A stretch of DNA of 64,000 nt. Origin: Bacteroidetes bacterium 46-16 (GTDB lineage Bacteria; Bacteroidota; Bacteroidia; Chitinophagales; Chitinophagaceae). A program made the translations under genes and the position numbers. This document shows positions 2,855 to 24,095 of this stretch, piece by piece. The stretch spans positions 447 to 64,446 of the forward strand of contig MKUN01000042.1 in assembly GCA_001897835.1 (NCBI GenBank), given 5' to 3'. Positions within the stretch are counted from its first letter, which is position 1; each line of letters opens with the position of its first letter. Below the pieces are notes generated by a model. The model was not told the DNA's origin. It was given only the letters and a program-made list of their open reading frames with translations, and searched no databases.

Positions 2855-3734
2855 ATTCATTATTTAAGATTTGGAGCATCCTGCCGACTTCAATATCCAT
2901 TCTTGAAAACGCAAACCATTTTTTGCCCAGGTCTTTGAGTGATGCTCCTATATGGTAGAGTTCTGCATTATCAATAATCAAAAATCGGTCGTGGGCATCG
3001 GAGAAAACCTCAATAGTTACTGGAGGATATTGGCTATTGTAGCGTTGTAAGTCTAACCGTAACTGATTGCTGATGCTTTTGGTAAGGATTGTAGCGGTTA
3101 CATTGTTTTTACGCTTACCCAGTAAAATAAGCACCGTATCATCCACGTAATTATCAAGCAGGATAATTGAGCTTACGGCACTTCGGATAATATCGGAAAC
3201 AAAGGTGTAGGCATCAAATACCTGCCCGTTGTAGAAAATGCCTTTTTCGCTGTGCAGCTTGTCGCTTTCCAAAGCCTTAAAAATCTCTTCAAATTTTTGG
3301 TCGGCTTCCAGTTGCTTTAATTCGATATTATCCAAACGATGAAACAAAGAAGCGTTGCTAATGAGCATACGCCGCATTTCTACAAAGGCTTCCATTATTT
3401 CCACACTCATTTTAACGGCTATATCTGAACGGAGTATGGCAGATGCCATTGCAACGCCTTGTTCGGTAAAAACATAGGGCAAATAACGTCTGCCGCCGTA
3501 ATTTAAACTTGAGGTTCCAATTTGGAACCTCAAGTTTTCAACTTCCTCTTCGGTCAGTTGAAAGCAGAATGATACAGGAAAACGCTCAATATTTCTTTTT
3601 ACGGCTTTGTTCAGGTTCTTTGTTTCCACCTGATATAAGGCGGCGAGGTCGCTATCCAACATTACCTGTTTGCCCCGAATGGTATAAATCAGGTTCCTGA
3701 TTTTTTTGGGTACGATTGACGGTTTATTTTCCAT
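2853..3734 (-). CDS. ORF6N-domain (KilA-N-like DNA-binding) protein
   Basis: N-terminus IRGKQVMLDSDLAALYQVETKNLNKAVKRNIERFP is typical of ORF6N proteins of Bacteroidota ICEs. The ATG at 3734 overlaps the topoisomerase stop by 11 nt. The longest ORF would start at 3767. Confidence 0.75.
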   Translation of the reverse strand: MENKPSIVPKKIRNLIYTIRGKQVMLDSDLAALYQVETKNLNKAVKRNIERFPVSFCFQLTEEEVENLRFQIGTSSLNYGGRRYLPYVFTEQGVAMASAILRSDIAVKMSVEIMEAFVEMRRMLISNASLFHRLDNIELKQLEADQKFEEIFKALESDKLHSEKGIFYNGQVFDAYTFVSDIIRSAVSSIILLDNYVDDTVLILLGKRKNNVTATILTKSISNQLRLDLQRYNSQYPPVTIEVFSDAHDRFLIIDNAELYHIGASLKDLGKKWFAFSRMDIEVGRMLQILNNE

Positions 3735-5817
3735 TGCGTTTACTGCTTTTGTTTTTCTCAAACTCAAAGGAACTTTCAGCGTTTTCTTTCAGAATGATGT
3801 AAGCATCGAATTTCTTTCCGGCTTTGCTTGTCATCCCTTTGATTAAGGAAGTTTTGCCTTTATTGACAAGGCTTGTTATGTTTTCGATACTGATTCGCAC
3901 ACCGCAGACGGTGCGGAACTGTACCCAGTTACAAGCCTCATCAGGGCATTTCACAATTTTATCACGAATGACGAGTTGCTGACTTTTACATTTCGGGCAG
4001 GTCAGTTTCGGCTGATTGGTACTTGCAATAGAAGTTTGCAACAATTCATCGGTAATGGATTTGGCATAGGTTTCCATTTCCTTTTGGAACGTTCCGGCAT
4101 CTGCTTCGTTATTCTCGATTTTCTGCAATGCCAATTCCCATTCGGCGGTCATTGCCACATCCGCAATCTTGCGTTCTTTGACCAACTCATAAACCTGCAA
4201 TCCTTTTTCGGTAGGGATTAAAGAGCGTTTATCCCGTAGGATATAATTACGGGTAAGCAGGGTTTCAATAATGGCGGCTCTTGTTGCAGGAGTACCAATA
4301 CCGATATTTTTGAGGGCTTTGCGCTCTTCTTCGTTCTCAATTTCTTTCCCTGCGGTTTCCATAGCCGACAAAAGCCCGGCTTCGGTGTAAAGCACTGGCG
4401 GTTTGATCTGCTTTTCCAAAACGGCAGCTTCCTTTATGGCAAGTTCGTCGCCTTTATGCAATTCAGGTAATTCCTGCTCTGGCTCTTCGCCATCGTCTGT
4501 AAAACTTCCTTTGATGGAACGCCAACCCGCTTCCTGAATTTTACAGCCTTTTGCCGTAAAGTCGTAATGCAATACCTGTAACGATACATCGGTTATTTCT
4601 TTGACACAGGCTTGCGATATGGCTTCGAGCAACCGAAGCGCAATCATATTGTATATCTTGTTTTCGTCTGCGTTTAGTACCGACGGCACTTTATCTGTAA
4701 TCAACAAACCGTGATGGTCCGTTACACGGAGGTCATTCACGATACGTTTGTTGAACCTTCCCCATTTAATTTTGGTAAGTGCTTGCTTGCAATCCTCACG
4801 GTTCTGCAATGCCCGCACAAGGTTTGGAATTTCTGCCCACATATCTTCAGGAATGTATTTGCTTCCGGTACGTGGGTACGTAATAAACTTCTTTTCGTAC
4901 AGGCTTTGTGCGATATTAAGCGTTGCTTCAGCAGATAATTTCAGCCTTTTATTGGCTTCCTTTTGCAAGCCAGTCAGGTCGAAAAGCAAGGGCGGTTGTT
5001 CCGTAACACTTTTGGTTTCTACCGAAGTAACGGTTGCCATTGCGCCACGCTGAATAGCTTTAAGGGTATCATCGGCAAGCTGCTTTTCGTCCCATTTGAT
5101 TGCGGAAATACTTTTGAAATCAACCTGTGCTTTGTTGTGCGATAATTGTATCTGCCAGTATTTCTTTACCGTGAAATTCTTATTATCGAGGTAGCGTTTA
5201 CATATCAAAGCCAGTGTGGGCGTTTGCACTCTTCCGAGCGAATAGATACCGTTGCCTGCGGCAATGCTCAATGCCTGTGTAGCATTGATGCCTACAAGCC
5301 AGTCGGCACGGCTTCTGCCTTGCGCTGCCTGATACAGTCCGTCAAATGCTGCCCCGTCTTTTAGGTTGTTGAAGCCTTGCTTTATTGCCTTTTCGGTAAG
5401 CGAACTTATCCAAAGGCGTTCAAAAGGTTTGTTGCATTTCAGGTATTCATAAATGTACCTGAAAATGAGTTCGCCCTCACGACCTGCATCGGTAGCAACG
5501 ATGATGCTGTTGCTTTGCTTAAAAAGCTGCTCAATGACTTTCAGTTGCTTTAATGCGCCAGTATCGGCGGTGTACCCTTTGTCTTTTTTGACCTTGCGGA
5601 CGGTCAATAAAAACGGGTTGGGCAATATCGGCAGGGATGCTTTATCAAATCCCGAAATGCCGTAATCTTCGGGCATTCCCAGTCCTATTAAATGACCGAA
5701 TGCCCACGTAACAAAATAGCCGTTACCTGTCAGGTAGCCATCCTTTTTATCGGATGCTCCCACAAGTCCGGCTATTTCCCTTGCTACGCTTGGTTTTTCT
5801 GCAATGATTGTTTTCAT
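3724..5817 (-). CDS. topB: DNA topoisomerase III (type IA), CTnDOT Exc-like
   Basis: 697 aa. TOPRIM N-terminus MKTIIAEKPSVAREIA, a type IA core (GRVQTPTLALI, TYPRTGSKY active-site Tyr region) and a C-terminal Cys4 zinc ribbon (CPKC...CPDEAC). Confidence 0.9.
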   Translation of the reverse strand: MKTIIAEKPSVAREIAGLVGASDKKDGYLTGNGYFVTWAFGHLIGLGMPEDYGISGFDKASLPILPNPFLLTVRKVKKDKGYTADTGALKQLKVIEQLFKQSNSIIVATDAGREGELIFRYIYEYLKCNKPFERLWISSLTEKAIKQGFNNLKDGAAFDGLYQAAQGRSRADWLVGINATQALSIAAGNGIYSLGRVQTPTLALICKRYLDNKNFTVKKYWQIQLSHNKAQVDFKSISAIKWDEKQLADDTLKAIQRGAMATVTSVETKSVTEQPPLLFDLTGLQKEANKRLKLSAEATLNIAQSLYEKKFITYPRTGSKYIPEDMWAEIPNLVRALQNREDCKQALTKIKWGRFNKRIVNDLRVTDHHGLLITDKVPSVLNADENKIYNMIALRLLEAISQACVKEITDVSLQVLHYDFTAKGCKIQEAGWRSIKGSFTDDGEEPEQELPELHKGDELAIKEAAVLEKQIKPPVLYTEAGLLSAMETAGKEIENEEERKALKNIGIGTPATRAAIIETLLTRNYILRDKRSLIPTEKGLQVYELVKERKIADVAMTAEWELALQKIENNEADAGTFQKEMETYAKSITDELLQTSIASTNQPKLTCPKCKSQQLVIRDKIVKCPDEACNWVQFRTVCGVRISIENITSLVNKGKTSLIKGMTSKAGKKFDAYIILKENAESSFEFEKNKSSKRNGK

Positions 5818-5823
5818 ACTGTA

Positions 5824-7284
5824 TTACATTTTTCTGCCTTTGGATTTTGCAGGCTTGTTATCCTGTTGCTCCTGCTGCTTCTCGTTTTTCGGTCTTTGCT
5901 GCCCGGACTTCAAAGGCTCTTGGACGTTCTTGGTCGCTTCGTTGGTTTTACCCTCCGAATTGACGGCAGTTTGTGTTTTATGATTTTCTGCAGGTTCTAC
6001 CCGTGCTTTGTACTGACCGGGAAACTCAAAATTGGTCTTTCCGGTATCTTTGTCGAACGTGATATAACCCTTATACGGTTGGTCTTTTTTGTCTTTCAGT
6101 TCAACGTATATGGTTTGTCCGGCTTTGAACTTGTTGTACTGCTCATCATCCAGTTCTTTGCCCCTGAAAGTTCTTGGAACTTCCTGCGGTTGGCTTTGCT
6201 GATTGCTTTGTTTGTTATTCTGTTGGTCCGTTTGCGCTTGCTGATTGGTGTTGCTTCTGTCAAACAGGAATTCAACGTATCGTTTGTCCGCATTGAATTG
6301 TACCGTTGCCGAAAACTCTGTTCCCTTAGTGGAAATCATACCCTCTAAATAGAGTGGTTTGCCCTCCATCAGCGTTTGCTTTTGTTCGTCATTCAGCTTT
6401 ACGCCCTTAATTTCATCGGGAATTTTGATAAACTCCGTGCGCAGTGCAATCACATCATTGGTCAGCCTGTCAATGCTGATAATGGACGGCATCAGTTCGC
6501 CTGTTTTAGAATTTACCAAATTGACGACACGCCCCATATTACCCGTTTCGAGCAGGTTTTTCTTGTCTTCGTCCGTAAACTTGTGACCGAAAAACTCAAA
6601 GTGGAGGTTAGGTTCTCTTTTGATACCGTGTATTGCCACGATAACATTGCCGTCTTCCGCTTGCTGTAAAGACAGGCGGGCATCCGTGCGGAGGATAGAA
6701 CCACCGAGGTTAATACCTATCGGTAAAAGCTCATTGGTTTTATAACCTCGTAACAAAGGGTCGAGCAGGTTCCTTTTTTCAAGATATTCCTTGCTTAATC
6801 CGAGGTTTTTCATTGTGTCCCAATCAATCTGCTCCGGCTTGTAGCGGTATTCGCTTGCTTCCGTTGTTGTTTGTGCTGTTGCCATATTATTTTGATTTTC
6901 TTGTTTTTTATCCGGTTGGGGTTCTGCTTTTACTTCGTGTTCTTTCAGCACTTTTTCGCCCTGTGGAGTGGGCTTATCTACGTGCTTTTGCAGTTCCTCT
7001 GCTTTTTCAGCAGCAACCGGGGCAGGCACTTTGAAGAAAGTAAAGTTTGTAGGGTTCTTTAACTGGCTGAAAAAATTGGAAAAGAAGTTGGAAAAGAAAT
7101 CGCCGCTTTTATCCACACGCATAAACTGGTTTTGGTTTTTTTTGGTGGGGTCAACGGTTTCCATTTTCCCGTTTTCGTCGATACTCTTTACCGCCTGGAT
7201 TTTCATTTTCTCTTTATCCAGTACGAGTAATATGTCCGAAAGCTGTTCGGGCATTTCCTGCTTATTGGTTGTTTCTTCACTCAT
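5824..7284 (-). CDS. DUF3945/DUF4099-type conjugative-element protein (CTnDOT Orf3 position)
   Basis: Large hydrophilic protein with Q/N/K-rich linkers, sitting between the two HTH genes and the topoisomerase as in CTnDOT-type elements. Probable ATG at 7284 (MSEETTNK); the longest ORF reaches 7332. Confidence 0.6.
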   Translation of the reverse strand: MSEETTNKQEMPEQLSDILLVLDKEKMKIQAVKSIDENGKMETVDPTKKNQNQFMRVDKSGDFFSNFFSNFFSQLKNPTNFTFFKVPAPVAAEKAEELQKHVDKPTPQGEKVLKEHEVKAEPQPDKKQENQNNMATAQTTTEASEYRYKPEQIDWDTMKNLGLSKEYLEKRNLLDPLLRGYKTNELLPIGINLGGSILRTDARLSLQQAEDGNVIVAIHGIKREPNLHFEFFGHKFTDEDKKNLLETGNMGRVVNLVNSKTGELMPSIISIDRLTNDVIALRTEFIKIPDEIKGVKLNDEQKQTLMEGKPLYLEGMISTKGTEFSATVQFNADKRYVEFLFDRSNTNQQAQTDQQNNKQSNQQSQPQEVPRTFRGKELDDEQYNKFKAGQTIYVELKDKKDQPYKGYITFDKDTGKTNFEFPGQYKARVEPAENHKTQTAVNSEGKTNEATKNVQEPLKSGQQRPKNEKQQEQQDNKPAKSKGRKM

Positions 7285-7368
7285 AATATGAAATTTTAAA
7301 AATTCACGGTCGAATGTAAAGGAAGCCTTCACTGATTTGCTTTAAGTGGCACTCAAAGGCAGCATTTG

Positions 7369-7677
7369 TCACTTATTGGCATCCAGTTTCGGCAAAGGCG
7401 GGTTAAAACTTTCCCTGATGAACTGATGTACATCGGACAACTTGTAATACAGTTTTCCGCTAATGGTATAATAAGGCAGCTTGCCTATGGAGCGATACCG
7501 TTGCAGGGAACGGTTACTGATTTTCAGCATTTGCAATAAATCCTGATTGTCCAGTAATTCTTCGCCGTCTATGCTGTTGCGCTTTTTTTGTAAATCGTCT
7601 ATGTGGTTGCCGAGAATGTCCAGCCTGTCCATTATGCGTTCCATCCACGCCACAAATTCCATTTTGTCGATATTCAT
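7369..7677 (-). CDS. Small helix-turn-helix (excisionase/MerR-like) protein, Xis2d position
   Basis: 102 aa with an HTH segment LLQMLKISNRSLQRYRSIGKLPYYTISGKLYYKLSDV. Confidence 0.6.
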   Translation of the reverse strand: MNIDKMEFVAWMERIMDRLDILGNHIDDLQKKRNSIDGEELLDNQDLLQMLKISNRSLQRYRSIGKLPYYTISGKLYYKLSDVHQFIRESFNPPLPKLDANK

Positions 7678-7689
7678 ACGTGTACGCCT

Positions 7690-8043
7690 TTAATGATTAC
7701 CTGATTTCAGTTTTCTGCCTTTCTTGATATAGCTTTTGCCTTTTGCCATAAGCTGCTCTACATATTCATCGGTGGTCTGCACAGCGTTTGCGTTGAGCAT
7801 ATCTTTGATAGCACCAATCGTATAGTAATACTGCCCGTACATTTTTGAAAAGGCTATCTGCCCGTTGGTACGCATACGCCACAATGTTTTTTCGCTGATG
7901 TGGAGATACTGGCAGACTTCGTGATTGTTAAGCCACAAACTATCGTAGCTTGTATCTTCCAGTTTGAGGATATATTCGCTAATGGCTTTCAACCGTTCGT
8001 TGAGGTGCTTCCACACTTCTTCGTCAACTGTTATAATGTTCAT
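7690..8043 (-). CDS. Small helix-turn-helix (excisionase/MerR-like) protein, Xis2c position
   Basis: 117 aa with an HTH segment VCQYLHISEKTLWRMRTNGQIAFSKMYGQYYY. It is the first gene after the rteC intergenic region. Confidence 0.6.
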   Translation of the reverse strand: MNIITVDEEVWKHLNERLKAISEYILKLEDTSYDSLWLNNHEVCQYLHISEKTLWRMRTNGQIAFSKMYGQYYYTIGAIKDMLNANAVQTTDEYVEQLMAKGKSYIKKGRKLKSGNH

Positions 8044-8207
8044 TGCACTATTGTTTAATATTCACAGTACAAAATTCAGAAGTGTGGCAGTGTTTGTCTG
8101 CCAATGCGTACCCATTGGTTTGGCACTTTTTTTCAAATTTTTTGCAATGAGAAAACCCTTTGTTTAATAAGGGTTTTAGCGTGTTTCGGTTATTTTGTAG
8201 TAGCCTT

Positions 8208-9855: not shown

Positions 9856-11838
9856 ATGTCCTTCAGGCCTAAAAACGCCCCCAACCTTATACTCTTTATT
9901 ATAGCTTTAATAACCACCCTTGTATACTCAAATCACTTCAACAACTCCTTCCATTTCGATGATGCCCATACTATAGTCAATAACCTAAGCATACGCGACA
10001 TACATAATATACCGGTATTCTTTACCGATGGCCGCACCATGAGTTCATTGCCATCAAACCAGGATTACCGCCCCGGCCTGACGACACTTAATGCCATCGA
10101 CTTTTACTTGTCCGGTAAAACGACACCCGACCCCTTTGTTTTTCATGTTTCTGTTTTTGCAAGCTTTATACTGCTGGGCTTGTTATTCTATATACTGCTG
10201 TTAAACATCTTGACTGTTACGGCAAACTCTGTATATAACAAATGGACTGCCTTATTTATTACAGCATGGTTCTGGCTGCACCCTGCCAATGCCGAGACCA
10301 TTAACTATATCATCGCGCGCGGCGATTCTTTTTCTACATTATGCATCATTCTGGCATTTGTCCTGTACATAAAACTGCCTAATACGCGCATTTACTACCT
10401 GTATATGTTGCCGGTCATAATAGGTTTCTTTGTCAAAGAACCGGCTATCATGTTTGTTCCATTGCTGTTTTGCTATAAACTGTTCTTTGAGCAGGAAATG
10501 TCTCTGCGCATGGCAATATCAAAACCCGCAAGGTCATTAAAGCTACTTATACCCCTTGGCATTCCTTTTTTGATAGTGATCGGGCTTTTCGTTTTCTCCC
10601 GCAAAATGGCACCTGATACATGGGTGCCGGGCGGCTACGACAAATGGCGTTATCTTTTCACACAACCAGCCGTTATATTTCATTATTGTAATAATTTCTT
10701 GCTGCCATTTAATCTCGTCGTAGATACTGACTGGACACTCGTACCATCCTATACTGATGAGAAAGTGATCAACGGGCTGCTTTTTGTGATCGTGCTGCTG
10801 GTCATAACATACCTGGCTGCTGCGCAAAAAAAATGGCGGCCGGTTGCATTTGGCATACTCTGGTTCTTTATTGCACTGGCGCCCACCTCTAGCATCTTTC
10901 CTTTTGCCGAAGTGCTGAACGATCATCGCACATTTTTCCCATACTTAGGCCTGTTCATTGCGGTTGCAGCAACAGGGAGAAATTTGCTTGACAGATACAC
11001 ACCCCGTATTCAAAAACCTATGAACAAGTCTGTATTACTGGTCACTGCTTTCCTTTTACTTACCGCATATGCATATGGCACATACAAACGAAACGAAGTA
11101 TGGCACACGGAAGAAACATTATGGAAAGATGCTACGATAAAAGCCCCCGCAAATGCAAGGGCCTGGATGAATTATGGCAACACACAAATGGCAAAGGGAA
11201 ATTTTGCTGAAGCTGAAAAATGCTTCGAAAAAGCCATTACCCTCTCGCCATACTATGCTTACGTATACGTCAACATGGGCGTGCTGAAGGCCGCACAAGG
11301 CGACAGGGCAGCAGCAGAACCATACTTCAAAAAGGCTTTGGAGCTCGATCCCGGCAACCCTGAATGCTATGCATTCTATGCAGAGTACCTCATACAAGGT
11401 GGCAGGAATACAGAGGCTGGCCAGGTATTGGAGAAAGGGCTGGCTATAAGTCCCGCACATGAAAAGATGAACCAGCTCATGCAGCAAAACCAAAAGGCAC
11501 TAAATGCAGGAACTACTATAACTATTGCCCAAAGTGATGAACGACTGGCACAGATAGCCAAATGGACCACGGCCCACCCCTCGCCGGAAAACTACCTTAC
11601 ACTAAGCCTCGAATATTATAGTGCCCGGCAGTTTGAAAACTGCATCAGGGCCGCACAGCAGGCATTGCAATTACGTCCCTGCTACGATCTTGCGTACAAC
11701 AATATATGCGCTGCTTACAACCAGTTGCAGCAATGGGATAATGCCGTTGATGCAGGAAAGAAAGGACTTGAGTGCAATCCGGGCAATCCTAACTTAAAAG
11801 CAAACCTGGAAGAGTCATACAAAGGTCGCCAACAATAA
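9856..11838 (+). CDS. Membrane GT-C-like protein with C-terminal TPR repeats (TMTC/PMT-like)
   Basis: The N-terminus has ~10 TM segments and the motif SFHFDDAHTIVNN. The C-terminal ~250 aa are TPR repeats (NARAWMNYGNTQMAKGNFAEAEKCFEKAI...). Confidence 0.55.
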   Translation: MSFRPKNAPNLILFIIALITTLVYSNHFNNSFHFDDAHTIVNNLSIRDIHNIPVFFTDGRTMSSLPSNQDYRPGLTTLNAIDFYLSGKTTPDPFVFHVSVFASFILLGLLFYILLLNILTVTANSVYNKWTALFITAWFWLHPANAETINYIIARGDSFSTLCIILAFVLYIKLPNTRIYYLYMLPVIIGFFVKEPAIMFVPLLFCYKLFFEQEMSLRMAISKPARSLKLLIPLGIPFLIVIGLFVFSRKMAPDTWVPGGYDKWRYLFTQPAVIFHYCNNFLLPFNLVVDTDWTLVPSYTDEKVINGLLFVIVLLVITYLAAAQKKWRPVAFGILWFFIALAPTSSIFPFAEVLNDHRTFFPYLGLFIAVAATGRNLLDRYTPRIQKPMNKSVLLVTAFLLLTAYAYGTYKRNEVWHTEETLWKDATIKAPANARAWMNYGNTQMAKGNFAEAEKCFEKAITLSPYYAYVYVNMGVLKAAQGDRAAAEPYFKKALELDPGNPECYAFYAEYLIQGGRNTEAGQVLEKGLAISPAHEKMNQLMQQNQKALNAGTTITIAQSDERLAQIAKWTTAHPSPENYLTLSLEYYSARQFENCIRAAQQALQLRPCYDLAYNNICAAYNQLQQWDNAVDAGKKGLECNPGNPNLKANLEESYKGRQQ

Positions 11839-11880
11839 CGCATAACACATACAAAACGATAATACCTGCACGACACCTCG

Positions 11881-13500
11881 CTATCCGGGGTTGCGCTTGA
11901 AAAAGGTAAACCCGTTCCTGCTGCCAAGGTCAAGCATTCCCGGTACAGAACGGTACTGGTCGGCACTGGTGACCTTACAAATAAAATATACAGGCTTATC
12001 TATCGCACCGCTGAGCAGCCACTGCTCTTCGTAAGATTTCGGGTTTGTTGGCTTTTCTTTTTTTGTATAAAACAATTGGGCGTAACTCTTATAACCCAAT
12101 ACATGCACATACACATCCTTACCCTCAAGGCCTTTAAAGAACTCGATGGCCGCCCGCTGCGAATAGGCCTCTATCTTCGGTGTGAAATGTAGCACAGCAA
12201 TTTGTATGATAAACACCTGTGTGACACACAATACCACCATCCCTCTTATAAAATGCCTGCGCATAAGCAGCAGGGCCGTTACAATTCCTGCAAAATACAA
12301 TATGCCCCACATGATCTCGGACATATGCCAGTGCACATCGGCCTGCAGGTTACCTACAGCAAACGGATCGGCGATATAAGGGATGAGCGCATTTTTATAA
12401 ATACCTGCCAGCGGGAACACCGTGACGACAAGGGCAAGCAGGAAACCGGTAATAAGCACCAGCACCACAACCCGCCGCTTCAGCTTTATCTCTCCGGCAC
12501 CCAGCCGCTGCAACTGGAGGGCAGCAAGATAAGTGAGCGGAAAATAACACAGGGACGAATAGTGTACGATCTTGGTCTTCACGATTGAGAACAGGATCAG
12601 TACTACCCAGAACAATATCCACATCCACCGCGTAAATGCACGCGCATATTCATTATCCGTGCTGCGCTTGCGGGTATATTGGAAAAGGAACATCGATGCG
12701 GGAAAGCAACCGAAGAATAACACAATGAAATGATAAATGAACGGCCCGCCGTGATCCGCATCCTCCGTGCTGAACAAGCGTATTTGATAACTAATGAATT
12801 CACGGATAAAATCCCATCCATGCGCAATGACCTCGACACCGAACCATAACGATGTGGTAACAAGAGCCGTAGCAGCCACAAGCAGCAAGTGCTTTACCTT
12901 ATAGCCCCAAAGTCCCTTGTTCACGATCATATATACAACGAACGATAGTAATGCCACCAGTATGGCCACAGGCCCTTTGGTCAATACGGCAAGCCCCAGG
13001 AAAATCCCTCCAAGCAAAGCATGCAGCAGCTTCCGATCGGCATAGCGCAACAAATGCACCTGGAAGAACGACAGGAATATAAAGAGGTTGAACACAGGGT
13101 CTATTATCCCCGACTTAAAGTAAAAATGCGGCAGCCAGCTGGCAGCATACAGCAGCACCCACCACCCGGCCATATGTTCATTGATCACCCGCTTACCGGC
13201 ATAATAGATACTGCACAAGGTAGCTATACCTGTTAGCGCATTCGGGAAGCGTGCCGCAAACTCATTGATCCCGAACAGCTTCATCGACAACACCTGCATC
13301 CAGATGAACAAAGGGGGCTTTTGGTAAAACGGCTGAAAATCTATCTGCACCCTCAGGTAATCCTTGGTAGCTATCATCTCCCGGGCACACTCCGCAAAGT
13401 TGATCTCGTCCCAGTCAAACAGGTGCACCTGCCCGAGGAAAGGGATGAATAACAAGCCTCCCAGCACAATGATGATACTATAGCGGATGAGATTCTGCAT
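11881..13500 (-). CDS. ArnT/PMT_2-like GT-C glycosyltransferase (lipid or LPS glycosylation)
   Basis: 539-aa polytopic protein with N-terminal FDWDEINFAECAREM...YQKPPLFIWM, typical of GT39/GT83 enzymes. Its ATG overlaps the PAP2 stop (TAATG). Confidence 0.7.
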   Translation of the reverse strand: MQNLIRYSIIIVLGGLLFIPFLGQVHLFDWDEINFAECAREMIATKDYLRVQIDFQPFYQKPPLFIWMQVLSMKLFGINEFAARFPNALTGIATLCSIYYAGKRVINEHMAGWWVLLYAASWLPHFYFKSGIIDPVFNLFIFLSFFQVHLLRYADRKLLHALLGGIFLGLAVLTKGPVAILVALLSFVVYMIVNKGLWGYKVKHLLLVAATALVTTSLWFGVEVIAHGWDFIREFISYQIRLFSTEDADHGGPFIYHFIVLFFGCFPASMFLFQYTRKRSTDNEYARAFTRWMWILFWVVLILFSIVKTKIVHYSSLCYFPLTYLAALQLQRLGAGEIKLKRRVVVLVLITGFLLALVVTVFPLAGIYKNALIPYIADPFAVGNLQADVHWHMSEIMWGILYFAGIVTALLLMRRHFIRGMVVLCVTQVFIIQIAVLHFTPKIEAYSQRAAIEFFKGLEGKDVYVHVLGYKSYAQLFYTKKEKPTNPKSYEEQWLLSGAIDKPVYFICKVTSADQYRSVPGMLDLGSRNGFTFFKRNPG

Positions 13501-18223: not shown

Positions 18224-18338
18224 AATTTCCGGTTTCCGGTAGGAAAGTTATTTCCGGTTTGGAATGAGGGAATCGGTGGAAATGCTTGCTGGAAGCGCCG
18301 TATTACATTTCAATATAATTTCCGGTTGTTACCGGTTT
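18224..18338. repeat. Cluster of TTTCCGGTT direct repeats
   Basis: TTTCCGGT occurs at 18226, 18233, 18251 and 18319. The inverted copy ACCGGTTT lies at 18331. Degenerate versions (ACCGGAA 18079, CTTCCGA 18162) lie upstream. Confidence 0.5.
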
Positions 18339-18350
18339 GTCTTTTAATGT

Positions 18351-18381
18351 AGCACGTACGGGAGTCGAACCCATACGTACT
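18351..18381 (-). ncRNA. tRNA-like acceptor/T-arm minihelix (or relic of a tRNA 3' end)
   Basis: The minus strand reads AGTACGTATGGG-TTCGACT-CCCGTACGTGCT. This is a 12-bp helix (2 G-U pairs) closed by a canonical T-loop (GG TTCGACT CC), followed by A. On the plus strand the G-U pairs become A-C mismatches, so the fold is strand-specific. Confidence 0.4.
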
Positions 18382-18551
18382 CCAGGGATTACGGCCCCAC
18401 GATGCGGGATGCAGGATTTACAGTGATGTCAAAGAACTTGCCCGGTACTAAAAAAGTACTGAACTACGCACCGCCGCCACTAAAAAAGCTAAGGCGGTTG
18501 TCAAATATACACCCGTTAACAAGCGGAATCCAAATGAGATATCCACATTTG

Positions 18552-18896
18552 TTAAATCGGAATGGAATAATAACTTGAGATATCCAGGGATATTTTTGAA
18601 ACTCTGAAATTAATACAATGATCTTTAATGCTGGCGACCCATCTATATCTACCTTTATGTCCATACATATATCTTGCCTGAAAGGCGCCCCGAACATGTG
18701 CAAACGGCACAATGTAATAGTCTGAGAATGTGTCCTTATCACCAAATATAATTATATTAAAATCGTCGCCATTGGCTTTTCTATATAATTCAATTTTGCT
18801 TTTAGCAAACCCTACCCAATATCCAGTAGAGATATCTGCCTTTAAAACATAATTTGAAAGACTTAAATTAAGACGATTAGCTAAGATTTTGTTCAT
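18552..18896 (-). CDS. Hypothetical 114-aa protein, last gene of the island operon
   Basis: ATG start lies 11 nt after the upstream stop. Same strand and composition as the operon. No recognisable motifs. Confidence 0.5.
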   Translation of the reverse strand: MNKILANRLNLSLSNYVLKADISTGYWVGFAKSKIELYRKANGDDFNIIIFGDKDTFSDYYIVPFAHVRGAFQARYMYGHKGRYRWVASIKDHCINFRVSKISLDISSYYSIPI

Positions 18897-18907
18897 AGTT
18901 TATGCTA

Positions 18908-19690
18908 TTATAAAAGTGGGATGATGGCCAATAAATAACCTATTAACAAACCAAGAAACATTGTCAGAGGATGGCTTATTATCTCTATAAAAATTGCATA
19001 CCTGTTTTTGTTCTTTACCCTTAGCTTTTTTACGCTTAAAAGCTTTACTGCTTTACATATAAAATCAGTTTTGCAATCCAACGAATTCAGAACAGCCGAA
19101 TAATTTTTATTCTCAAATTCTAAACCTTCATATTCCAGTGACAAATACTGTCGATCTAAAACAGCTCCGTTATTATACGCAATAAGACTTCTAAGTTTGT
19201 CTGGGCCGTCTATGTATTCTTCACCATACATCCCTTCTAATACTAACGCTAAATTAACCTTATTTCTCATAGGTATTTCCTCATATCGTTCCTTACTCAA
19301 ACCAGCAAAAATTTTCTCGAACCTATGTTTTATAGCTTCAAATCCAAAATGAATATTTTTCATATCCCAGTGCACCCAAACATCATCGTCGTGTCTCTTT
19401 ACAAATTCATTGAATGCTTTCAAAGTCATAAACTCAAGATCACGATAAGAATTTTCAATTTCTTCTATAGGTATATTCGCTTTGTCTGCTTCTAGATGTA
19501 CTGCAAAATGACGTTCAAAACTGCCATCTAATGATTTTATAACGATAGCTGATACCAAAGGTGAAATTTCCCCGTATTCATCATCATATGTACGTAGTTG
19601 AGAATAATGTACAATTAGAACCTTAGATGGATCTATAATCAGCCTCTTAAGCTTTCTTATTGCTAAATTTCTGGTTCTTATAACTCCCAC
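18908..19690 (-). CDS. Hypothetical 260-aa protein with a C-terminal transmembrane anchor
   Basis: The GTG start shares one base with the helicase stop (TAGTG). The soluble body has no motifs I recognise. The last ~25 aa (PLTMFLGLLIGYLLAIIPLL) are a hydrophobic helix. Confidence 0.55.
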   Translation of the reverse strand: MGVIRTRNLAIRKLKRLIIDPSKVLIVHYSQLRTYDDEYGEISPLVSAIVIKSLDGSFERHFAVHLEADKANIPIEEIENSYRDLEFMTLKAFNEFVKRHDDDVWVHWDMKNIHFGFEAIKHRFEKIFAGLSKERYEEIPMRNKVNLALVLEGMYGEEYIDGPDKLRSLIAYNNGAVLDRQYLSLEYEGLEFENKNYSAVLNSLDCKTDFICKAVKLLSVKKLRVKNKNRYAIFIEIISHPLTMFLGLLIGYLLAIIPLL

Positions 19691-22521
19691 TACCTAATGC
19701 ATTTTGAGTTATACTTAAGTCTATAATAGCATAATCGATTTTCATAACAGGAATCACATTTTTCCTTATCTTCCACCTTTGTAAAATCTTCATCTCTAAT
19801 TTTTTCAACAGCAGATTTAATCTTGTCCTCAATTTCGTTTAAATCAGAATCTAGTAATTTTTCAGGAGTTTTGGGATTGTTTTCTCCAATTATATATGTC
19901 ATGATATAATCAGCTCTCTGACCCGTAAGTTCTCTATGTCCAAGAGCATATAATTTTAGCTGATCTTTGGTTACCCGAGTTACTATAGGCTTGTCTTCAC
20001 TTTTAAATTCAACGATTGTTGTCTCAAACTTCCCAGACTCATTTCTTTTTTTTATTAAATCAATTCTTCCAAGCACTAAAATATTTTCATCGAGTTTATA
20101 CTGTATATCCTGTTCAACGAATTCAATATTATCAAAATCATCCTTATTGTCTTCATAATAATCAACGACATTGTTTCTTACTTTTCGCCAGAGTGGTCGC
20201 TTTAGTTTCGTTGACTTTGTGAGATAAGGAAAATTTGTCTGTCTTTCAACTAACCTGATGAGATCCTTTGTATTAAGTTCCTCCTGTTTTTGCGCCCTTT
20301 TATGAATTTCCATAAGCGCATTGTGGAAAGATCTACCAACTCCCATTCTTTGATTAAGTGGAAATTTGAAACCATACATCGAAACCAATTTAAACCTATA
20401 TGGACAATCGAAAAAGTCTTTTAGCGTCGTAAAATCTAGTGAAATATTTTTTATTTTTTCCTTAGGCTTTGAATCAATTTTAAGCTGTGACGAAAAATCT
20501 TCTTTTTTATCTTGAACCAAAACGTTGGCACGTCTTAGTTCTCCTGCAAATTGAGACTCTACTCTATAAAGTCGGTTATCAAGATCTGGAGCTCTGGAAA
20601 GCAAAAGATACTTCTGACTTCTAGTTATTGCTACATACAACAAACGTCTTTCGTCTTCTTTATCATCATTACCTTCATATCTTGGTTGCTCACTAATTAA
20701 TGCCCGATCTAAAAAATGCCACTCATTCAACCCACCTTTCTTTTTTGAGGGTAGATAATTTTTATTTAGGCCTGGTATAATAACAACCGGGAACTCCAAT
20801 CCCTTTGCCTGATGTATTGTCATAATTTGCACTGCGTTCGGCGTTTTATAAGGATTATTAAGCCAACCTTGTGGATAGTAATCTCGCGCCGCGTAAGTAA
20901 TGAAGCTTAAAAAAGAAAATAAATGCCTGGCTGGAGAAACACTATTGAAATTTATTTCCTCAAAATCATTTATTACCTGACTGAATTTGCCAAGATTAAA
21001 GAAAATAATTTCTGCTTTCTCTCTGCTTTTTTTAAGTATCTCCGAATTAGAATCATCAATAAAATTATCTTCATAAATCTCCCCATCAACAATAAATTCC
21101 CATAGGATATCTTGTAAAGAATATTCCCAATTATCTCTTACAGTATTTAAATCTGGCTTTCGTTTGCTTAAATTATCTACAGCCATCTTTAATTTCTTTA
21201 CATCAAGCCGATTGTTTGGTAGTTTCGTCCAAAGCTTTATTAACTCATCTGCCTCAATATCTCCATACAAAAAGTAATAAATGCCTAATGCCCCTTCTAC
21301 CTCTGGCGTCTCAAAAAGCTGATTTACACCAGCAGTTATATAGGGGATATTATGTTTATCCAATTCTTCAACAATTGTCTCAGCCTTGCTCCATGTACGT
21401 AATAATATTGCAATATCAGAGTATGCTAATCCACGTTTTTTCTCTTCTCGATCAGAAAATTCGACACCGATAATGTTTTCAATGTATTCTGCGATAGCTT
21501 CATTTTCTTCTGAAACACTATCGTATTCATTGAATAATAAATCCTGTCCTTTTGCAAACGATTGCCTATGGTCTGAAACCATACTCTTATTCCTAATCCT
21601 ATCAATATTGTTGGCAATTAGAGTTTCTGCCAATCTAGTTATACCTTCTGAACTCCTATAATTAATACCAAGCGGAATATTTTTGAACTCTGCCTCATTA
21701 AATTTCTTATCAAAGTTGATTATGTATTTATTATTGCTACCTCTCCATTGATATATATTTTGATCATCATCCCCAACTACAACTACATTACAACCACTAA
21801 TTTCATGCAGCTTGTTTATCAATTTTTCCTGAATTGGATTTACATCTTGATACTCATCAACAATCAAATACTTTAAACTCTGTTCAATTTTCTTTGTTAA
21901 ATTGCTATCAGGTTTTAAAGATTCAATTGCCCGATCCATTATCATAGAAAAATCGAAGAATTTTTTACTAAGCAAAGTTTGTTCGTACTTTTTCTTGGCA
22001 CTCTTTATATTTTCAGGAAGCTCATTCTCTAAATCTGACTCTCGGACAATGTCCATTATCCTTGCGAATATGGACGTATCAATAAATCGGCGAAGTGGCA
22101 CTGCAGGATTACTTAATTTAGCAATGTCTTTCATACCAATGCGCTCATAATACTTATCTATAAAGAGCTTTAATTTTATTTCATCCAAAACTGAAAAACT
22201 CTGATACTCATAAATATTATCTTGTAACGCTTTTAAACACCAGCCATGTATCGTGCCAATATACATGTTAGCCATTCCTGTATAGTGACCTGAGGCATTT
22301 AATATTTTATTTTTTAGCTCTGCCGCCGCCTTATCAGTATATGTAAAAGCAATAATGTTCTCTGGTTTTAGATCATAGCCATTTGCAGGATCAAGCAAAT
22401 AGGCGACCTTCCCCGCTATAGTGGTGGTTTTTCCAGATCCTGCACAAGCAATAATCCTTAGATGCTTATCATTTATAGATATGGCCTCCTGCTGTTTGGG
22501 AGATAGTTCATCGAATTGCAT
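19690..22521 (-). CDS. UvrD/PcrA-type SF1 helicase fused to a C-terminal Cas4/AddB-like PD-(D/E)XK nuclease with Cys4 cluster
   Basis: Helicase motifs: AGSGKTTT (Walker A), LIVDEYQDVNP, VVVGDDDQNIYQWRG, INYRS, IHQAKGLEFPVV, LLYVAITRSQ. Nuclease motifs: FFDCPYRF, GRIDLI, IVEFKS, QLKLYALG, CDSCYENRLC. Confidence 0.85.
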   Translation of the reverse strand: MQFDELSPKQQEAISINDKHLRIIACAGSGKTTTIAGKVAYLLDPANGYDLKPENIIAFTYTDKAAAELKNKILNASGHYTGMANMYIGTIHGWCLKALQDNIYEYQSFSVLDEIKLKLFIDKYYERIGMKDIAKLSNPAVPLRRFIDTSIFARIMDIVRESDLENELPENIKSAKKKYEQTLLSKKFFDFSMIMDRAIESLKPDSNLTKKIEQSLKYLIVDEYQDVNPIQEKLINKLHEISGCNVVVVGDDDQNIYQWRGSNNKYIINFDKKFNEAEFKNIPLGINYRSSEGITRLAETLIANNIDRIRNKSMVSDHRQSFAKGQDLLFNEYDSVSEENEAIAEYIENIIGVEFSDREEKKRGLAYSDIAILLRTWSKAETIVEELDKHNIPYITAGVNQLFETPEVEGALGIYYFLYGDIEADELIKLWTKLPNNRLDVKKLKMAVDNLSKRKPDLNTVRDNWEYSLQDILWEFIVDGEIYEDNFIDDSNSEILKKSREKAEIIFFNLGKFSQVINDFEEINFNSVSPARHLFSFLSFITYAARDYYPQGWLNNPYKTPNAVQIMTIHQAKGLEFPVVIIPGLNKNYLPSKKKGGLNEWHFLDRALISEQPRYEGNDDKEDERRLLYVAITRSQKYLLLSRAPDLDNRLYRVESQFAGELRRANVLVQDKKEDFSSQLKIDSKPKEKIKNISLDFTTLKDFFDCPYRFKLVSMYGFKFPLNQRMGVGRSFHNALMEIHKRAQKQEELNTKDLIRLVERQTNFPYLTKSTKLKRPLWRKVRNNVVDYYEDNKDDFDNIEFVEQDIQYKLDENILVLGRIDLIKKRNESGKFETTIVEFKSEDKPIVTRVTKDQLKLYALGHRELTGQRADYIMTYIIGENNPKTPEKLLDSDLNEIEDKIKSAVEKIRDEDFTKVEDKEKCDSCYENRLCYYRLKYNSKCIR

Positions 22522-22523
22522 TT

Positions 22524-23783
22524 CTATGCTTTTTTCATAATTACTATGTATTCTTTATTCATTAGAGTTGATGCTTTGCCGGCGATACCTGTAGGACTGT
22601 TTTTTCGCGGCATTCTCTTACTTGAAATTTTTCTTGTAAACGTTTGCACATGCCTGAAGCCATTTTCCTCAAAAAAATGCTTGGTTATTAAATCCGTTTT
22701 AAGTGTAACACCTTGAACACATCTATTACTAACTACATAACACGCGTGACCATTCTTTTTTACTATCCTGGAGATATTAGCAATAGAATCGTAGTAGTCT
22801 TTATAAAACGAATAAACTTCTAAAGCTCTTTTTTGACTCCTTGCTTTTATTTCAGCTATTTGCCCATTTAATGTTCTTGAACAATCAAATCTCTCTATCG
22901 CTTCGTGCTTTTTACCTCCCATCAAGTTGCGGTCTATTGCTTGAGAATTACTATAACTCAACCATTCATTAGCCAGCCTTGAAAATTGTCCATACGCAAC
23001 AGTGGTTTGAGAATCGCCATACGGCGGAGATGTTACTACCAAATTTACACTCCTATTAGGTACTATTTCCAACGGAATGCCACTAACAGTATTAAAATCA
23101 TATACATGGCTAATTGATGGTTGCCTTTTTTGGTTCATAAAATCCAATAAAGCGAATCGATTTGATTTCAAAACTTGCTCAATATGTGCAAAGACATTAG
23201 GTTTGAACGTTTTAACCTTTTCGCTGTCCATCTTGTACAACTTAAATTCATTTTTTCTGGTCCAGGAACAATCCCGTATAGTTTGACTAAACGCCACGTT
23301 AAAGAAGTTCCTCACAGATTCAGATTCAAGCGTATCAATGTAGGCTTTAATAATAGCTAAGTCCTGTTTAACACTTTTTGAAAACCAAAAATCAATATTT
23401 GAAAAATGAGGTATATCAATCTCGTCTATTATAGGAATGGAATCATTTTTACTAAATCCCATCCGAAATTGAAAAAGATGGTCATAAAAATCTTTGAGAT
23501 ATAAATCCAATGTCTTTTGCTCTATAACCGTTGTCTTAGCACTTGCCAATATTCTTGCCAAAGGATTTAGATCCGTACCAATGGCATCTATTCCCCTAAC
23601 ATTTGCCTCAACCAGAGATGTCCCAGTTCCACAATAAGGGTCAAAAAGGAAATTGCTCTTCTTACTCTTAAAAGAATCAATCAATCTACTTGCCACTTGT
23701 GGTATCATCATTGCAGGATACATGTGAAATCCATGTGTCAATGTCTTTGTATTTTCTTCAGTAAAATCCCAGCTATTTGCCAT
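22524..23783 (-). CDS. DNA methyltransferase, N4-C/N6-A type (PF01555-like) with AdoMet motif before catalytic SPPY
   Basis: HMYPAMMIPQVASRLI...FDPYCGTGTSLVEA (motif I region) lies near residue 50. VTSPPYGD (motif IV) lies near residue 250. Its stop is 2 nt from the helicase ATG. Confidence 0.8.
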   Translation of the reverse strand: MANSWDFTEENTKTLTHGFHMYPAMMIPQVASRLIDSFKSKKSNFLFDPYCGTGTSLVEANVRGIDAIGTDLNPLARILASAKTTVIEQKTLDLYLKDFYDHLFQFRMGFSKNDSIPIIDEIDIPHFSNIDFWFSKSVKQDLAIIKAYIDTLESESVRNFFNVAFSQTIRDCSWTRKNEFKLYKMDSEKVKTFKPNVFAHIEQVLKSNRFALLDFMNQKRQPSISHVYDFNTVSGIPLEIVPNRSVNLVVTSPPYGDSQTTVAYGQFSRLANEWLSYSNSQAIDRNLMGGKKHEAIERFDCSRTLNGQIAEIKARSQKRALEVYSFYKDYYDSIANISRIVKKNGHACYVVSNRCVQGVTLKTDLITKHFFEENGFRHVQTFTRKISSKRMPRKNSPTGIAGKASTLMNKEYIVIMKKA

Positions 23784-23833
23784 AGAACAAGTGAGTTATT
23801 GAACGAATTTATTGATTATTATCTGGTGATGGT

Positions 23834-23849
23834 AGCGTGTTTTCACGCT
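23834..23849. promoter_or_regulatory. Palindrome AGCGTG-TTTT-CACGCT in the operon upstream region
   Basis: 6-bp arms, about 50 nt upstream of the methyltransferase ATG. Its function is unknown. Confidence 0.25.
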
Positions 23850-23998
23850 TGATTTTCTCGTTTTTTTTATTAATGGAATACAAAAAACGGTGAAATCGTG
23901 CGAAAGAAATACTGTTTTTCTAAAATGTGGATATTTTTATCTTATGTAAGTACTGTTTAGAAAAAGCTTTGATTGAGCTGAGCCAGTAGTTCTCAGGA

Positions 23999-24051
23999 GA
24001 TCATTCGTCGCGCAGTCAGCACGCAAGGGCTATAGCGCTCCTCATGATGAC
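23999..24051 (-). repeat. REP-like intergenic element, copy X
   Basis: The reverse complement GTCATCATGAGGAGCGCTATAGCCCTTGCGTGCTGACTGCGCGACGAATGATC aligns by eye with copy A (17404-17455). Confidence 0.35.
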
Positions 24052-24095
24052 GGCCTTGATCGTGCGTTTAACCCTTCCGTCCTTAGGACGCCTCC

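Follow-up and report, generated by a model that had tools for sequence, protein, structure and literature searches.

Fusions of a UvrD-type helicase to a Cas4-like nuclease make up a described protein family. In the 2017 Cas4 phylogenomic study these UvrD-Cas4-like fusions are the largest branch of PF12705, and a monophyletic one, and their genes adjoin either those of Type III Mod and Res or that of Dcm, in some cases with Vsr, a role in defence being predicted for them (Hudaiberdiev et al. 2017, BMC Evol Biol 17:232, PMC5704561). A second point of reference is Bad, the bacterial DNA2-like helicase-nuclease of Geobacillus, which is encoded beside a methyltransferase and has been proposed to represent a new class of restriction enzyme, unwinding and degrading DNA (PMC7430649). 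Here we analyse a locus of Bacteroidetes bacterium 46-16 in which a helicase-nuclease gene of the first kind lies between the genes of a DNA methyltransferase and of a protein of 260 amino acids (aa), p260. The window, i.e. the whole stretch of DNA that was analysed, comprises 64,000 nucleotides (nt) of contig MKUN01000042.1 (GenBank assembly GCA_001897835.1, positions 447 to 64,446 of the forward strand), and coordinates in it are counted from its first letter.

The initial annotation of this window, made from the letters alone, had singled out the helicase-nuclease as an AddA/AddB-like fusion with a role in degrading foreign DNA. The fusion itself is not new: it belongs to a known family, and a second, native fusion built in the same way is encoded elsewhere in this genome. 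The unit that had been overlooked is a conserved triad of genes, which includes the 260-aa partner with its predicted membrane anchor. We read this cassette as a horizontally acquired defence of the restriction-modification type, with the helicase-nuclease as its motor-nuclease, and give this reading a probability of roughly 0.6.

Results

The three genes of the cassette, and the parts of the helicase-nuclease discussed below, are the following:

19690..22521, minus strand: helicase-nuclease, 943 aa (P0001), the gene of the finding; an open frame with no stops
20596..22506, minus strand: UvrD/PcrA-type helicase core of superfamily 1A (SF1A), residues 6-642, all motifs intact (Pfam, PDB sequence matches, conservation)
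19729..20430, minus strand: PD-(D/E)XK nuclease with four-cysteine cluster, residues 698-931 (Pfam PDDEXK_1, invariant columns, Foldseek)
20404-20406, 19756-19758, 19747-19749 and 19729-19731, minus strand: codons of cysteines C706, C922, C925 and C931, respectively
22524..23783, minus strand: DNA methyltransferase, 419 aa (PADLOC MTase_II PDLC03322, E = 6e-120, over the whole length)
18908..19690, minus strand: p260, 260 aa, beginning with a GTG codon that shares 1 nt with the stop codon of the helicase-nuclease gene

The helicase motifs I-VI had been described as intact, and all of those quoted were located, i.e. GSGKTT (residues 28-33), DEYQD (222-226), GDDDQNIYQWRG (250-261), YRS (288-290), QAKGLEF (571-577) and VAITRS (630-635). 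They lie in the Pfam domains UvrD-helicase (residues 6-274, E = 7.5e-53) and UvrD_C (residues 283-642, E = 2.4e-39), and every one of them is invariant in 25 aligned full-length homologues of 37-73% identity. Among the Pfam ATPase families only the SF1 UvrD ones matched the protein, those of superfamily 2 (SF2; ResIII and Helicase_C) giving no match, and the PDB sequences nearest to the helicase core are PcrA (1.5e-45) and UvrD (3.7e-40), with Rep also among the closest. The peptides quoted from the C-terminal region are likewise all present: FFDCPYRF (with C706), GRIDLI (D821), IVEFKS (E838 and K840), QLKLYALG (Q854 and Y858) and, near the C-terminus, CDSCYENRLC, which holds C922, C925 and C931. 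D821, E838, K840, Q854 and Y858 were assigned as the catalytic residues of the nuclease; D821, K840, Q854 and Y858 are invariant in the same 25 homologues, and so are the four cysteines, one N-terminal and three in the CxxCx5C cluster, with a spacing of Cx(n)Cx2-3Cx5C across the alignment.

A profile check set beforehand placed the C-terminus in the PD-(D/E)XK/Cas4 clan, as the initial annotation had proposed: Pfam PDDEXK_1 covers residues 698-931 (E = 3.7e-19), the match to Cas_Cas4 being weak and under the cut-off (E = 0.0023). A search of the nuclease-domain profile against PDB sequences gave no useful match, and the fold comparison worked instead. With an AlphaFold model of residues 680-943 (predicted local distance difference test, pLDDT, 80.7) as the query, the top Foldseek structure was AddB (4cej_B, E = 2.9e-7); the other nearest folds were AdnA (9np6_A), the type I-C Cas4 (8d3l_J), the Argonaute-associated Cas4-family protein ACE1 (9iab), Dna2 (5eaw), RecE and the Cas4 protein SSO0001, and most of the top matches are known iron-sulphur (Fe-S) nucleases of the RecB family. 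The canonical spacing of the four cysteines suggests that they are candidate 4Fe-4S ligands. Judged from its sequence and from the structural model, the protein is a UvrD-type helicase fused to a Cas4/AddB-type, predicted Fe-S, nuclease. The term AddA/AddB-like thus stands for the architecture and fails as an identity: the NCBIfam AddA models score 140 bits against a cut-off of 707.65 (TIGR02785) and 95 against 860.75 (TIGR02784), the RecB and PcrA equivalogs also remain far under their cut-offs, and the helicase core is nearest to PcrA/UvrD.

One genome per species was scanned for related loci, and 27 loci with full-length relatives of the helicase-nuclease were retrieved. In about 19 of these 27 the same triad recurs, an SPPY methyltransferase followed by the helicase-nuclease and by the 260-aa protein, in the same order and tightly spaced. 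In triad loci the methyltransferase gene lies 0-60 nt ahead of the helicase-nuclease gene (in the window 2 nt upstream of it, the adjoining methyltransferase of the initial annotation being confirmed), and an overlap of 1 nt between the helicase-nuclease stop and the p260 start is usual. The hosts are mostly Bacteroidota of many families, with an Algicola metagenome-assembled genome (MAG; Gammaproteobacteria) besides. No AddB, RecC or RexB neighbour was found in the window or in the 27 related loci, so that this check bears out the view that the gene is not simply a host AddA. Two MAG contigs from the same study (L021, 219-4202; L030, 8001-10277) have the methyltransferase and/or the helicase-nuclease split over several frames, which could be decay or assembly indel errors.

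Outside the triad, three full-length relatives at 37% identity (L024, L026 and L029) are followed by N6_N4_Mtase and ResIII genes, a sacsin-like protein being encoded also in L024 and L029, and make up the outgroup clade of the helicase-nuclease tree; a relative on a Priestia plasmid sits with Vsr, Dcm and an MspI-family restriction endonuclease (REase). These contexts match those for which the 2017 paper predicts a defence role (PMC5704561).

The methyltransferase shows the Pfam N6_N4_Mtase motif-I region on residues 3-74, with the S-adenosylmethionine (AdoMet) motif DPYCGTGT near the N-terminus and the catalytic TSPPYGD following it by about 200 aa in an alpha-like arrangement, and these motifs are conserved across 20 cassette methyltransferases. 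In amino-methyltransferases SPPY points to N4-cytosine methylation, and the motifs suggest that the cassette enzyme writes N4-methylcytosine. Its family is much commoner than the triad: members were found, beside small open reading frames (ORFs), in 31 of 400 other genomes of the phylum. Ten partner ORFs were tested, of which four gave strong PADLOC REase_II matches and three larger ones weak matches; in three further cases the methyltransferase gene stands with genes for a double-GHKL ATPase and for a protein some 600 aa long. The same family thus elsewhere adjoins Type II REases, because of which the helicase-nuclease and p260 appear to fill the slot normally held by a Type II endonuclease. 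No stand-alone cognate REase was found for the cassette, in that no REase or other nuclease family in PADLOC, Pfam or NCBIfam matches p260 or the small neighbouring protein p114 (see below).

The GHKL module is itself recurrent (L104, 3258-8819; L105, 4276-9919; L017, 3-5980) and consists of a lineage-B methyltransferase, an ATPase of about 820 aa and a protein of 594-678 aa without a family. The ATPase contains two GHKL domains (HATPase_c_3 and HATPase_c) and shows weak PADLOC REase_II matches; in L017 the module precedes a Mrr_N-HNH gene and a helicase-nuclease.

Cassette methyltransferases fall into two lineages which are 28% identical to each other, while helicase-nucleases from across these two groups reach 77% identity, and the lineage label of the methyltransferase switches at least three times over well-supported branches of the helicase-nuclease tree. 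The correlation of pairwise identities is 0.93 for helicase-nuclease versus p260 and 0.34 for helicase-nuclease versus methyltransferase (-0.17 within lineage A). As judged from these comparisons, the helicase-nuclease is co-inherited with p260 and the methyltransferase has been swapped repeatedly. Given these repeated swaps against a constant pair, the helicase-nuclease and p260 therefore probably lack a sequence specificity of their own.

The gene that follows the triad varies among loci and can encode an HNH endonuclease, a DUF4238 protein, a nucleotidyltransferase or a Schlafen-HTH ATPase. The 104 ORFs that flank 18 related loci include strong PADLOC matches to AbiEi/AbiEii, SspC, mad8, TmtA, HNH proteins and several genes of candidate systems, and by gene content the flanks of the related triad loci are defence islands. 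The corresponding position in the window is taken by a small gene:

18552..18896, minus strand: p114, 114 aa, homologue of the N-domain of an endonuclease made up of this N-domain and HNH_2

It shares 36% identity over 114 aa with residues 1-114 of an HNH_2 protein of 268 aa encoded in L017, and PADLOC, Pfam and NCBIfam assign it to no family. No HNH remnant was found downstream of it in the window, where the island described below ends some 110 nt further on. As a core component of the cassette p114 was discarded: a homologue occurs in one related locus only, as the N-domain of the HNH protein. A truncated remnant, or an N-domain that has become separate, is the probable explanation.

These neighbours bear on a different view of the helicase-nuclease, namely that it is an ancillary, RecBCD-like processor of DNA that has been cut by another enzyme, be it the HNH product of the fourth gene, an unlinked enzyme or p260. 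Elsewhere its family always stands with a complete system (Mod and Res; Dcm, an MspI REase and Vsr; or a methyltransferase, a GHKL ATPase and an HNH protein), and ancillary is also the word used for the UvrD-Cas4 fusion in the 2017 paper (PMC5704561). An HNH endonuclease follows the triad in L004, L010, L011 and L012 and lies nearby in L017, and p114, homologous to the N-domain of an HNH protein, would be what is left of one here, reduced to a stub. HNH genes nonetheless accompany no more than about 5 of the 19 triads, the remaining loci having unrelated fourth genes or none, and the conserved core holds no recognised endonuclease other than the helicase-nuclease's own. An ancillary role would, moreover, leave a strictly linked methyltransferase without a cognate nuclease unexplained, and we take it to be rather unlikely, albeit worth keeping in view.

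The third protein of the triad, p260, has a C-terminal membrane helix at about residues 241-259 (18911-18970). It has no match in Pfam, NCBIfam or PADLOC, its sequence retrieved nothing useful from the PDB, and it matches phrog_8766 (unknown function) with E = 1.8e-29. Its AlphaFold model (pLDDT 85.7) was related by Foldseek to the 3'-5' exonuclease domains of PolB and PolA and to viral RNase H-like/YprB proteins, with modest E-values of 1e-3 to 1e-4 on which the entire match list agrees; the model thus points to an RNase H/DEDD-exonuclease-like fold carrying a C-terminal membrane anchor. An exhaustive profile search defined a family of 887 clusters (E <= 1e-3), nearly all of 250-280 aa. A strongly hydrophobic helix lies within the last 45 residues in 113 of 140 diverse members, and H28, D/E69, E86, H107, R123, N173, E188, S203 and K207 are kept in 93-100% of 130 members, E86, E188, S203 and K207 being near-universal and IHYSCE being a consensus motif of the family. 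Such conservation suggests a functional site more than a scaffold.

Most of the p260 family is not linked to a helicase-nuclease. Stand-alone copies occur in 2 of the 400 genomes of the phylum; relatives were also found on two IMG/VR contigs, both lacking a helicase-nuclease, and in 18 phage records, 17 of them from Streptococcus. The copy of Javan47 (P0219, gene 0006) is placed on the integrase/repressor strand, between cI/cro and xis, a place typical of prophage genes expressed in the lysogen. One member of 815 aa (P0322) has a weakly TIR-like C-terminus (PycTIR, E = 0.029) and no membrane helix.

From such data p260 might be seen as the centre of an exclusion or abortive system, such as superinfection exclusion or abortive infection, acting in its own right as a membrane-anchored sensor or effector which the helicase-nuclease and the methyltransferase modulate or feed. 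The size of the family, its common C-terminal helix and its nearly universal constellation of polar residues speak for this, as do the stand-alone copies on the lysogeny strand of Streptococcus Javan prophages and the one TIR-like C-terminus. The TIR-like match is weak, however, and no effector role has been established for a single tail-anchor helix; the strict linkage to a methyltransferase would be left unexplained, and the helicase-nucleases of the triads keep every catalytic residue. We accord this view only a small chance of being correct.

The cassette lies in a region of foreign composition:

18441..24095, no strand assigned: low-GC island carrying the cassette, about 5.6 kb, defined by the composition profile (about 33% GC against about 52% in the host)

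To its right, from 24096 onwards, the sequence is again homologous to that of a sister species. ARAGORN detected no tRNA gene at the island borders, and Rfam no credible family; no terminal direct or inverted repeats were found around the island and no integrase gene in it, and a sigma-70 promoter/terminator scan, which does not cover Bacteroidota promoters, remained at background level. At E <= 1e-50 the helicase-nuclease gave no match in the 20 nearest genomes searched, of which six belong to the same genus. The genome already has a native single-chain UvrD-PD-(D/E)XK protein of 1049 aa on another contig (C43:4304-7453, plus strand; L106), next to clpC and with no AddB-like partner adjacent, as well as a separate UvrD on contig C45. 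The native protein, which shares 23-25% identity with the island one, was found in 17 of the 20 relatives, its identity dropping from 91% to 32% with taxonomic distance. Its C-terminal cysteines are spaced unlike those of AddB/Cas4, one being in FLRCPLAF and the others in CGKEDCHWC (Cx4Cx2C). As the native fusion is conserved in the relatives and the island gene was found in none of them, the comparison indicates that the UvrD-PD-(D/E)XK architecture is ordinary in this lineage and that the island copy is the foreign one. By the same sequence evidence the cassette was acquired by horizontal transfer and is not a host gene.

This origin weighs on the reading of the helicase-nuclease as a single-chain analogue of AddAB/RecBCD serving recombinational repair of the host. 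The resemblance is genuine as regards the architecture, which is that of AddA/AddB/AdnAB, the closest folds (AddB and AdnA) and the sub-threshold NCBIfam matches to AddA and RecB. Against it stand the search of 20 relatives, which found the gene in none, the foreign GC content, the want of an AddB/RecC neighbour in any locus, equivalog scores far under the cut-offs, and a native helicase-nuclease (C43) and UvrD (C45) that are already present. A repair role is thereby already contradicted, and we leave it scarcely any probability. The initial annotation had argued against repair and for the degradation of foreign DNA, and it is supported in this by the lack of AddB/RexB pairing, by the negative search of the 20 relatives and by the low-GC island.

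An island of foreign DNA could also be the remnant of a replication or recombination module of a mobile element, in which the helicase, the RecB-type exonuclease and the exonuclease-like protein would handle the DNA metabolism of the element and the methyltransferase would shield its DNA from host restriction. The island is clearly foreign, and its proteins match the phage families phrog_1967 (helicase), phrog_69 (exonuclease), phrog_18146 (methyltransferase) and phrog_8766. Yet the island lacks genes for an integrase, a replication initiator, structural proteins or any other phage function, the same holds as a rule for the surroundings of the triad elsewhere, and the flanks are host or defence genes; a p260 relative is found on only the two IMG/VR contigs mentioned, neither with a helicase-nuclease. 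The likelihood of such an origin is slight.

In the sister species (G002) the same site, beside genes for LptC-like and BamG proteins, is occupied by another low-GC island (L080, contig C21:36000-47000, at about 3270-8094), with a gene for a SIR2_2-domain protein of 578 aa followed by one for a Piwi-domain protein of 467 aa, a pair which by sequence has the layout of a short-Argonaute/SIR2 system. Since the sister species holds this SIR2/Piwi island at the same place, the site seems to serve as a hotspot of defence genes in this genus. The non-coding left border of the island in the window (18225-18440), which includes a tRNA-like piece pointed out in the initial annotation, is 74-97% identical to positions 8287-8524 of L080, where its counterpart has the reverse orientation and is found across the island, directly against the shared right-flank genes. 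ARAGORN and Rfam detected no RNA gene in this stretch, which might be an attachment or inversion element.

Discussion

The restriction-modification-type reading of the cassette can be put into a sequence of steps. The methyltransferase would mark host DNA. At the inner face of the membrane, docked on p260 or cooperating with it, the helicase-nuclease would load on unmarked incoming DNA, unwind it in the 3'->5' direction with ATP and cut it by means of its Fe-S-stabilised RecB-type nuclease. Since the methyltransferase is exchangeable, specificity would come from it or from the mark itself: recognition of the target could be supplied by the methyltransferase, as by Mod in Type III systems, or the methylation could be read independently of the sequence context. 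The membrane anchor of p260 suggests that the action would take place where foreign DNA enters the cell.

Several observations weigh against this reading. A UvrD-type helicase requires a nick, a 3' tail or an end for loading, and no part of the cassette is known to make one; nor was any known element for reading methylation or sequence found in the helicase-nuclease or in p260. A canonical DEDD site in p260 had to be given up, as H28-Y29-S30 on strand 1 replaces DxE and the acidic quartet is lacking. Because p260-like proteins also occur alone, without methyltransferase or helicase, p260 may have a function of its own. The triad is not without exceptions either: L020, a member of the clade, has no adjacent methyltransferase, and L015, from an Omnitrophota MAG, encodes an AAA_15/AAA_21 (OLD/ABC-type) ATPase of 497 aa (11090-12583) in place of p260. 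The close agreement of helicase-nuclease and p260 identities reflects co-inheritance and does not prove physical contact. Finally, searches of the literature for a named system or an experiment with these genes led to nothing beyond the 2017 Cas4 phylogenomics and the Bad papers.

A bolder version of the restriction-modification-type reading can be entertained, in which the helicase-nuclease and p260 together form a membrane-tethered restriction machine devoid of its own sequence specificity, p260 holding the motor at the point of DNA entry or handing it a DNA end, and self being told from foreign by the methyl mark, whichever lineage of methyltransferase writes it. Such a machine would explain the repeated methyltransferase swaps, and the 887-cluster p260 family, its copies on the lysogeny strand of prophages included, would then represent a novel, widely distributed group of tail-anchored anti-phage proteins. 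We put this forward tentatively, considering it doubtful in its full extent.

The interest of the cassette lies in its simplicity. In the described contexts UvrD-Cas4 fusions travel with a complete restriction enzyme, which makes their own contribution hard to isolate; the triad offers a minimal setting for the function of the helicase-nuclease, with a methyltransferase, one small partner and no Res or REase. If an SF1 motor with an Fe-S nuclease restricts by itself, this would be a mode distinct from Types I-IV. The cassette also gives a first clue to the function of the large and as yet unnamed p260 family, with its tail anchor and RNase H-like fold.

Comparison with known systems

With AddAB, AdnAB and RecBCD the helicase-nuclease shares a UvrD-like motor and a RecB-family nuclease, together with the four-cysteine pattern Cx(n)CxxCx5C and a fold nearest to AddB and AdnA. 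Those enzymes are, however, heterodimers or heterotrimers encoded by adjacent genes, conserved within their lineages and serving repair, whereas here a single chain is encoded in a mobile island. The helicase core also matches GajB of Gabija in PADLOC (E = 6.7e-63), both being defence-linked proteins of the UvrD type; unlike the helicase-nuclease, GajB carries no nuclease domain, and a methyltransferase is not part of Gabija. The window contains no GajA/OLD nuclease, the PADLOC GajB match being confined to the helicase core and no neighbour matching. As a separate observation, the arrangement of methyltransferase, helicase-nuclease and AAA_15/AAA_21 ATPase in L015 recalls Gabija.

The methyltransferase is of a Type II family, as in Type II restriction-modification, from which the cassette differs in that no stand-alone REase was found in it. 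The likeness to Type III systems (Mod2Res; EcoP15I) is one of layout: a methyltransferase gene comes first, followed by an ATPase fused to a C-terminal PD-(D/E)XK nuclease, and the nuclease subunit of Type III need not carry a DNA specificity of its own, which fits the methyltransferase exchange seen here. The parts are nevertheless different, since Res is an SF2 sliding-switch ATPase without an Fe-S cluster and its counterpart here an SF1A unwinding helicase with a Cas4/AddB-type, predicted Fe-S, nuclease; the cassette methyltransferase is not of the Mod type, and there is a third subunit with a predicted membrane anchor.

Bad is comparable in combining an SF1 helicase with a four-cysteine RecB-family nuclease, with an Fe-S cluster in Bad and a predicted one here, encoded beside a DNA methyltransferase (PMC7430649). 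In Bad, however, the nuclease is N-terminal, the motor is SF1B (5'->3') and the neighbour is a Type III-like Mod, while in the cassette an SF1A motor comes first and the nuclease last, and the two are not homologous as whole proteins.

The closest relationship is that with the UvrD-Cas4 clade of the 2017 study. The protein agrees with this clade in all three features of architecture and descent, with an SF1A UvrD helicase followed by a PF12705 four-cysteine nuclease; common descent with the Type III Mod/Res-linked fusions is seen in 37% identity over the full length and in their position as the sister clade in the helicase-nuclease tree. Its setting departs from the contexts given there, Mod with Res and Dcm with or without Vsr, in that the window combines an SPPY methyltransferase of a Type II family with p260 and has no Res or REase. 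No mention of the p260 partner was found in the available part of that account of UvrD-Cas4 fusions (PMC5704561). The Res-less triad with p260 is thus not among the contexts described in that part of the 2017 paper, and we regard it as a new variant within a known family.

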